NCBI GenBank assembly: GCA_040880105.1
Contig: JBBDJA010000025.1
Span: 66,882-80,194, forward strand
DNA: 13,313 bases
Source: Waddliaceae bacterium
Lineage (GTDB): Bacteria > Chlamydiota > Chlamydiia > Chlamydiales > SLOH01
Direction of reading: 5' to 3'
This document shows positions 7,895 to 8,410 of this stretch, piece by piece. How positions within the stretch are numbered: position 1 is the first letter of the stretch; the number at the start of each line of letters is the position of its first letter. The notes under the pieces are model-generated. The model did not search any database and was not told where the DNA came from. It saw nothing but the letters and a program-made list of their open reading frames with translations. The translations under genes and the position numbers were made by a program.

Positions 7895-8410
7895 ATGCCT
7901 GATCAAACACAACCAGTCTGCGCAAATCATATTCATCCGCAAGAGAGTGGAGAAAAGGATATGAATCTTGAAACGCTCATTCTCCTTATTAATTCAGAGC
8001 GCCTAAAACAACTCGAACAAAAAGCCTTTTCTGAATTAAAAGAATTAAAAGAGAGACAGGCAGACGTCTCAAAATTGCACTCTATTTTAAAAAAACTCAA
8101 TATTTTAAGCCCCAACGGTGAGCTCGACCTTAAAAAACACCCCGAACTCCAAGAACTTATCAATGAAGCTAAGGAAATGGGTGTAGAAATTGAAGAGGGA
8201 AAGACAAAGTACACCGAAGAAGATAAGGCGCGATTGACCGATAACATCCGCATGACCATTGAAGACATGAACACAAACAATGAAATGCAGCTCCAGTCTG
8301 TGACTCGCTACAATAATGAACGTTACGAATCATGGCAAATGGCAAAATCGATCATCGACCCGCTGGACAAAGTAAAAAAAGGGCTCGCAAGAGCATTAGC
8401 CGGACGATGA
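7895..8410 (+). CDS. Putative T3SS needle-tip/filament protein (Bsp22/SseB/EspA-like, helical coiled coil)
   Basis: 171 aa, hydrophilic, predicted all-helical. The N-terminal block MNLETLILLINSERLKQLE...RQADVSKL and the C-terminal block NIRMTIEDMNTNNEMQLQSVTRYNNERYESWQM resemble, by eye, the terminal helices of Bordetella Bsp22-type proteins. It is the first gene before a class II chaperone and two translocator-like genes. The CDS itself is well supported; the function is inferred. Confidence 0.6.
   Translation: MPDQTQPVCANHIHPQESGEKDMNLETLILLINSERLKQLEQKAFSELKELKERQADVSKLHSILKKLNILSPNGELDLKKHPELQELINEAKEMGVEIEEGKTKYTEEDKARLTDNIRMTIEDMNTNNEMQLQSVTRYNNERYESWQMAKSIIDPLDKVKKGLARALAGR

Follow-up and report, generated by a model that had tools for sequence, protein, structure and literature searches.

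We examined a 13,313-nt stretch of contig JBBDJA010000025.1 from a Waddliaceae bacterium (hereafter, the window), with a focus on the open reading frame at 7895-8410 of the forward strand, which encodes a protein of 171 aa and is here called gene X. We observed that gene X heads a four-gene unit, X-lcrH-copB-like-copD-like (Table 1), and that its stop codon overlaps the lcrH start (ATGA). The operon shows the order tip, chaperone, major translocator and minor translocator, and the Salmonella SPI-2 order sseB-sscA-sseC-sseD is the same. As described below, the product of gene X is probably SctA, the hydrophilic subunit at the needle tip of the chlamydial type III injectisome, and is predicted to prolong the needle by stacking into a hollow helix.

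Gene X and its operon

A relative with 80% identity to gene X had the same length (171 aa), although alternative starts exist: an in-frame ATG is present at 7883, and one database record carries a shorter call of 149 aa. The promoter and the hairpin in Table 1 were assigned on position, since the window as a whole contained 6 promoter-like sites against a shuffled mean of 4.6 (no excess), and 5 terminator-like hairpins against 3.0 expected.

Table 1. Features of the gene X operon, with positions in the window
Feature	Position	Strand	Details
Likely sigma66/70-type promoter	7840..7869	+	TTGACG-N18-TAAAAT, TG before -10; best site, 10/12; rests on position
Shine-Dalgarno-like GGAGGA	7885..7890	+	from sequence; 4 nt upstream of the gene X ATG (7895)
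Gene X, Bsp22-family hydrophilic translocator (SctA) candidate	7895..8410	+	171 aa; N-helix 25-71, small insert, C-helix 108-168; profile links
LcrH/SycD class II translocator chaperone	8407..8793	+	TIGR02552, E 2e-29, 102 bits (slightly below the 104.8 cut-off)
Short CopB2/SctE-like major translocator candidate	8818..9537	+	239 aa; hydrophobic stretch 1.54; profile of relatives
Short CopD2/SctB-like minor translocator candidate	9540..10127	+	195 aa; hydrophobic stretch 1.68; profile of relatives
Terminator-like hairpin closing the four-gene unit	10144..10167	+	10-bp stem with T tail, facing convergent methyltransferase gene; rests on position

The two translocator-like genes were assigned through their relatives. 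The 239-aa gene gave a weak match to Pfam SseC (E 0.17), and the profile of its relatives matched EspD (1e-4), a Desulfovibrio gene in the SctE position (7e-10) and Chlamydia genes in the CopB2 position (6e-5 and 3e-3). Similarly, the profile of the 195-aa gene's relatives matched an SctB-type gene (1e-7) and, at 2e-7 to 8e-7, Chlamydia genes in the CopD2 position. The operon end is faced by a convergent class I methyltransferase gene (10167-10847, reverse strand), and the same arrangement was seen in many of the chlamydial loci examined.

We further evaluated the architecture of the protein. The preliminary description had proposed a Bsp22/SseB/EspA-like tip-filament protein with amphipathic N- and C-terminal helices, a variable middle and no transmembrane segment. 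The last of these held: the highest Kyte-Doolittle mean over 19 residues was 0.19, whereas the two translocator-like genes further along the operon reached 1.54 and 1.68. The AlphaFold2 model (mean pLDDT 80) was a long hairpin of the two terminal helices, with a helix at residues 83-94 in the small insert. The helices were as described, but their amphipathicity was patchy, with a hydrophobic moment of 0.35-0.68 in 4 of 7 windows of the sequence and of 0.09-0.16 in the other 3. The middle varies in length (insertions are located there), but is not less conserved per column (0.41) than the helices (0.38 and 0.46). Taken from the model, the alignment and the hydropathy, a Bsp22-type architecture is present in gene X, with long N- and C-helices, a mixed, insertion-tolerant middle and no membrane segment, in agreement with the published account of the Bsp22 model (PMC12607632).

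Relationship to Bsp22 and to EspA/SseB

No model in Pfam or NCBIfam matched gene X. Its family was collected in successive searches (44 of 147 candidates, then 408 of 7999, then 439 representatives at E 0.001), and gene X together with 124 of the 150 representatives listed made up the chlamydial profile A2. Among 16 type III proteins from annotated regions, A2 selected three (Rhizobium IE4803_PB00148, 36.6 bits; Bradyrhizobium QIH85_RS47125, 26.2 bits; Desulfovibrio DVUL_RS15310, 15.9 bits), all of which lie within lcrH-translocator clusters. Among 400 Gammaproteobacteria, A2 matched in 17 genomes at E 0.01 and in only one, G525, below 1e-4; the matching gene of G525 heads sctE-like, sctB and lcrH genes. 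The G525 protein was matched in 5 of the 61 genomes of a relatives search (G525 included), giving six distinct relatives at 37-55 bits, often in tandem. A motif from one of these relatives led to six metagenome loci, all at 25-50 bits, with one named B. bronchiseptica Bsp22 (P0339), which adjoins BcrH1.

When single sequences were scored with the chlamydial profile, Bsp22 gave 27.2 bits, in comparison to 0.3 for LcrV, -3.0 for AcrV, -5.8 for IpaD, -2.0 for EspA and -2.2 for SseB. The spaced Bsp22-like motifs given in the preliminary description were borne out. They occur in gene X at residues 23-40 and 123-149, the Bsp22 motifs that it quoted agree with the named Bsp22, and the alignment of the two proteins falls in the proposed register.

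The relationship could also be recovered in the reverse direction. A profile of 19 non-chlamydial Bsp22-like proteins found only gene X in the genome (E 5.9e-10; the next match had E 0.32), and after removal of the seven proteins reached via G525, gene X was still at the top of 4287 open reading frames, at 23.8 bits. Iteration from Bsp22 alone reached gene X in round 3, and converged at 418 of 6207 sequences without drawing in any other reading frame of the genome. In a profile-profile comparison (hhalign), gene X and the Bsp22 family matched at 98.5% (E 3e-15) over 150 columns. The real match scored 93, while the shuffled (25 heptad-block) and reversed controls scored 19 or less, and the neighbouring helical translocators gave 14% and 2%. 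These comparisons supported the assignment of gene X to the Bsp22 family.

Gene X and Bsp22 are similar in size and collinear in their N-helix, insert and C-helix, and in both cases genes for a class II chaperone and two translocators lie downstream. They differ in that the identity is about 15% in aligned columns and the middle of gene X is shorter. In addition, the gene X locus lacks a Btc22-like gene between the tip gene and lcrH, and its translocators are ordered B then D.

The relationship to EspA and SseB was less direct. Bsp22 has been reported to lack significant sequence similarity to EspA but to be alike in predicted fold (PMC12607632). We observed that a set of 22 EspA/SseB sequences matched the Bsp22-like set at 97.5% (E 8e-12). 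Against gene X directly, the set gave only 40% or 68%, depending on the direction, although this was above all 25 shuffles. Gene X matched no PF03433/SseB model in Pfam or NCBIfam, and this model did not appear among the 25 families, out of 219, that were listed for 125 members. A shared architecture was suggested by VIA-align, in which the EspA filament (7khw) gave the longest alignment of 50 rows (154 of 174 residues), at a Z equal to that of generic coiled coils. Atlas neighbours of gene X and of the Chlamydia C-terminal domain included EspA-bearing clusters, and the top structural row for gene X was a 482-aa Chlamydiota cluster (TM 0.78). At the level of sequence profiles, gene X is a relative of EPEC EspA and Salmonella SPI-2 SseB at superfamily level, via the Bsp22 family, and not a PF03433 member. 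Thus the Bsp22 part of the earlier claim stood in both directions and with controls, while the SseB/EspA part stood indirectly.

Several Bsp22-like proteins were also seen outside the window. In genome G1026, a 348-aa protein (L131:667-1713) has a DUF1521 domain (Pfam E 5.5e-31), presumably a metal-induced self-cleaving domain, inserted mid-protein; it and a plain copy form a tandem pair that precedes lcrH. Two proteins from metagenome contigs of 42% GC (L136:226-858 and L138:864-1496; 47-50 bits) have a basic-then-hydrophobic N-terminus resembling a Sec signal or anchor, and no lcrH was seen on these short contigs; they may represent use of the Bsp22 fold apart from type III secretion. Rhizobial plasmids carry unannotated Bsp22-like genes (L061:8583-9203, L062:8202-8729, L102, L103 and L104), 4 of the 5 downstream of lcrH-sctE-(sctB-position) and adjoining a secretin; sixteen plasmid records matched. 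These genes suggest that the tip of such rhizobial systems is of the filament type. On a Desulfovibrio vulgaris plasmid, the hypothetical DVUL_RS15310 (L063:6378-6887) is a diverged family member directly upstream of lcrH-sctE-sctB. A helical gene of about 90-160 aa is often found beside the Bsp22-like gene or lcrH (L127:997-1308, L128:2039-2350, L130:854-1165, L061:5607-5879, L062:5595-5885, L063:6040-6342), and may act as a tip chaperone at the position that LcrG occupies elsewhere; it was absent from the window operon.

The family in Chlamydiota and the long Chlamydia forms

We scored 300 Chlamydiota genomes and found A2 matches in 136 (111 with a narrower profile, A1). In the family that holds Chlamydia (f4), all 29 of 29 genomes matched, including proteins named as Chlamydia pecorum, C. 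avium, C. buteonis and Ca. C. corallus. Other families had few or no matches (f9, 0/26; f10, 11/62; f7, 6/47), and these low counts may reflect divergence or loss.

Gene order was examined in 53 loci from 50 genomes, drawn from 111 hits (29 best and 24 hand-picked). The lcrH gene directly followed X in 39 of the 50 genomes, and a CopB-like gene did so in 8 of the remaining 11. In loci L013, L015, L016/L044 and L025 (one of them named Neochlamydia), the operon is without lcrH and a translocator-like gene of about 385 aa stands directly after X. Five genomes (G271, G064, G101, G255, G216) had at least two copies, or forms with about 100-200 aa inserted mid-protein. Multiple copies of bsp22 have been described in Achromobacter (CluSeek preprint), and are comparable with the multiple copies in some chlamydiae.

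In the Chlamydia forms, the X domain makes up the last 140-165 aa or so of a protein of 478-504 aa, and the match of these long forms to gene X in profile-profile comparison was 99%. The C-terminal domain is strongly conserved (top-residue share 0.71-0.96), whereas the N-terminal extension of about 310 aa is not (0.29-0.49). The chaperone beside one long form was near-identical to PDB 4NRH chain B, which we take to be C. pneumoniae Scc3.

We also take CT863, CTL0238 and CPn1022 to be equivalent, and their orthology to gene X to be positional. Like gene X, they are encoded by the first gene of an lcrH_2 (scc3)-copB2-copD2 operon, and the Chlamydia proteins at that position carry the X domain C-terminally; they differ in length (about 480 aa vs 171 aa). 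The operon has been described as CTL0238-lcrH-copB_2-copD_2, expressed in reticulate bodies (CTL0238 operon paper), and in C. pneumoniae as CPn1022 with LcrH_2, CPn1020 and CPn1019 (PMC4760673). A second-hand account states that the N-terminus of the C. pneumoniae homologue of CT863 drove secretion of a reporter (PMC3931295). The translocator-like genes of the window (239 and 195 aa) are roughly half as long as those of Chlamydia (about 500 aa), and therefore all three translocon genes would have gained N-terminal extensions in Chlamydia.

Two other loci of the genome were noted. A CesT-family chaperone gene (2407-2931 of the window, reverse strand; E 9e-31) adjoins ssb and pepA, which fits what we take to be the Slc1/CT043 arrangement. 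A second translocator-like cluster (G000:C9:6000-22000, L146) contains three large genes without annotation, two LcrH genes, an SseC-like gene of 783 aa, cdsD and a DUF5407 gene. The latter is probably the needle subunit and was weakly matched by the Bsp22 profile (E 0.015); no relative of gene X was found in this cluster.

The probable needle-tip role

The preliminary description held that this component is not firmly identified in Chlamydiae. This was fair, except that the positional orthologue CPn1022 had already been labelled a hydrophilic needle-tip protein in 2016, on the basis of position and hydrophobicity only (PMC4760673). A 2023 review table still gives CT584 as the chlamydial SctA (PMC9993115), while CT584 has been reported as a chaperone of CT082, and a role at the tip found no support in the structure of Cpn0803 (PMC3576375). 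The CT584/Cpn0803 family (PF17435), proposed for the same role, is separate from that of gene X, which had no PF17435 match. That family was matched in 3 of the 5 entries searched, and was not found at E 0.1 in this genome (90% complete), nor in G044 or G055. The words 'tip' and 'needle' do not occur in the main text of the CTL0238 operon paper, and the available text of the CluSeek preprint surveys Bsp22 copies without mention of chlamydiae (further sources: PMC1084347, PMC13466201, PMC5451489). Our literature searches gave no paper linking the X family to Bsp22; subscription journals lay outside them, and an annotation of this kind may exist in supplementary tables. Homology now makes a good case for a tip candidate that previously had only a positional label.

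We consider it likely that gene X encodes the tip protein (SctA). By analogy with the growth of Bsp22 and EspA filaments (PMC12607632, PMC7498569), it would be exported as a middle substrate and would dock on the needle end. Further copies would stack by means of their two terminal helices to form a hollow, helical prolongation of the needle, with the insertion-tolerant middle facing outward, and this structure would position or scaffold the CopB2/CopD2-type pore. For the short forms, such a filament is modestly favoured over a short cap; for the long forms, our confidence in it is lower.

Some of the observations weigh against this interpretation. A plain pairwise BLASTP of gene X and Bsp22 was not significant (E 0.039), so the link needs profiles, and the chlamydial profile gave only 31% against Bsp22 alone. 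Collection of the Bsp22-like set relied in part on the chlamydial profile, and the 6207 sequences used for the iteration were enriched for the X/Bsp22 family. The long Chlamydia forms are tied to the Bsp22 family by way of gene X (99%); directly they matched it at 84% in one direction and 13% in the other, and the Bsp22-family profile missed them (0 of 4 genomes, 1.9 bits). The scores of single EspA and SseB sequences were negative, as given above, and the EspA/SseB profile did not recover gene X from the genome. Foldseek gave no match under E 0.001 (the EspA filament was at rank 5, with E 0.64 and TM 0.47), and in VIA-align generic coiled coils equalled or exceeded EspA in Z. The operon has no gene between X and lcrH, and contains no Btc22/CesA/SseA-like chaperone gene. 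Finally, 164 of the 300 Chlamydiota genomes had no A2 match.

The leading alternative is that gene X encodes the tip, but assembles no further than a short cap or several turns, in the manner of the LcrV and IpaD pentamers, without a long filament. In C. trachomatis elementary bodies, cryo-electron tomography revealed a needle of 28 nm that carries a discrete tip complex (PMC4682100), which also counts against a long filament. However, these tomograms are not a direct test of the gene X operon, since its expression is in reticulate bodies. The proximity of reticulate bodies to the inclusion membrane favours a cap, as does the extension of about 310 aa in the Chlamydia forms. One Bsp22-like protein cleared the Pfam LcrV cut-off on its C-helix; this helix is therefore common to cap-type tips, and homology alone cannot choose between filament and cap. 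LcrV also occupies the same slot before lcrH. Nevertheless, the profile scores and a size of about half speak against placing gene X with the LcrV/PcrV/AcrV and IpaD/SipD/BipD type: its 171 aa (vs 324-361 aa) are too few for the extra domains of LcrV and IpaD. The closest named relatives, Bsp22 and through it EspA, make filaments, and we regard the short cap as unlikely, though it deserves consideration.

A second alternative, which we consider improbable, is that the protein is derived from a tip but is now a secreted effector or a regulator of secretion, above all in the long Chlamydia forms, and that another protein caps the needle. The long and poorly conserved N-terminal part, together with the many Chlamydiota genomes that had no match, would fit such a role. 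The CT577-position proteins of the elementary-body operon were unrelated to gene X (about 1 bit), so elementary bodies may use another tip. Against this, the C-domain shows strong conservation and keeps its place at the head of the translocator operon, and CT584, as noted above, acts as a chaperone and has a structure that did not favour a tip role (PMC3576375). That the likeness to Bsp22 is generic coiled-coil similarity with an unrelated role is already largely refuted and very improbable, since, in spite of the low pairwise identity and the unrelated coiled coils at equal Z, the match is collinear end to end and includes the non-coiled middle, the controls and the helical translocator profiles scored far lower, and the non-chlamydial full-length matches examined are located within or close to type III loci where the context is visible.

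Favouring the needle-tip subunit, we put forward a broader proposal more tentatively. The CPn1022/CTL0238/CT863 family may be the real chlamydial tip and filament subunit, with reticulate bodies building an EspA/Bsp22-type extension for the CopB2/CopD2 translocon and displaying the variable domain of about 310 aa in Chlamydia. Bsp22, EspA/SseB, the chlamydial family and the unannotated rhizobial, Desulfovibrio and gammaproteobacterial proteins may then form one superfamily.

For the debated chlamydial needle tip, the X family offers a homology-based candidate that was present in every genome searched of the family of Chlamydia. The tip proteins of other bacteria are established targets for vaccines and antibodies, and the 171-aa form should purify and image more easily than the 480-aa form. 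Gene X as the tip predicts a stage-specific tip for the reticulate-body translocon, and the lack of an X-type gene in the elementary-body operon raises the question of the elementary-body tip. Bsp22, described as a family of its own, is tied by profile to EspA/SseB. If the one-superfamily proposal is true, filament-type tips would be widespread, and not an oddity of Bordetella and EPEC.
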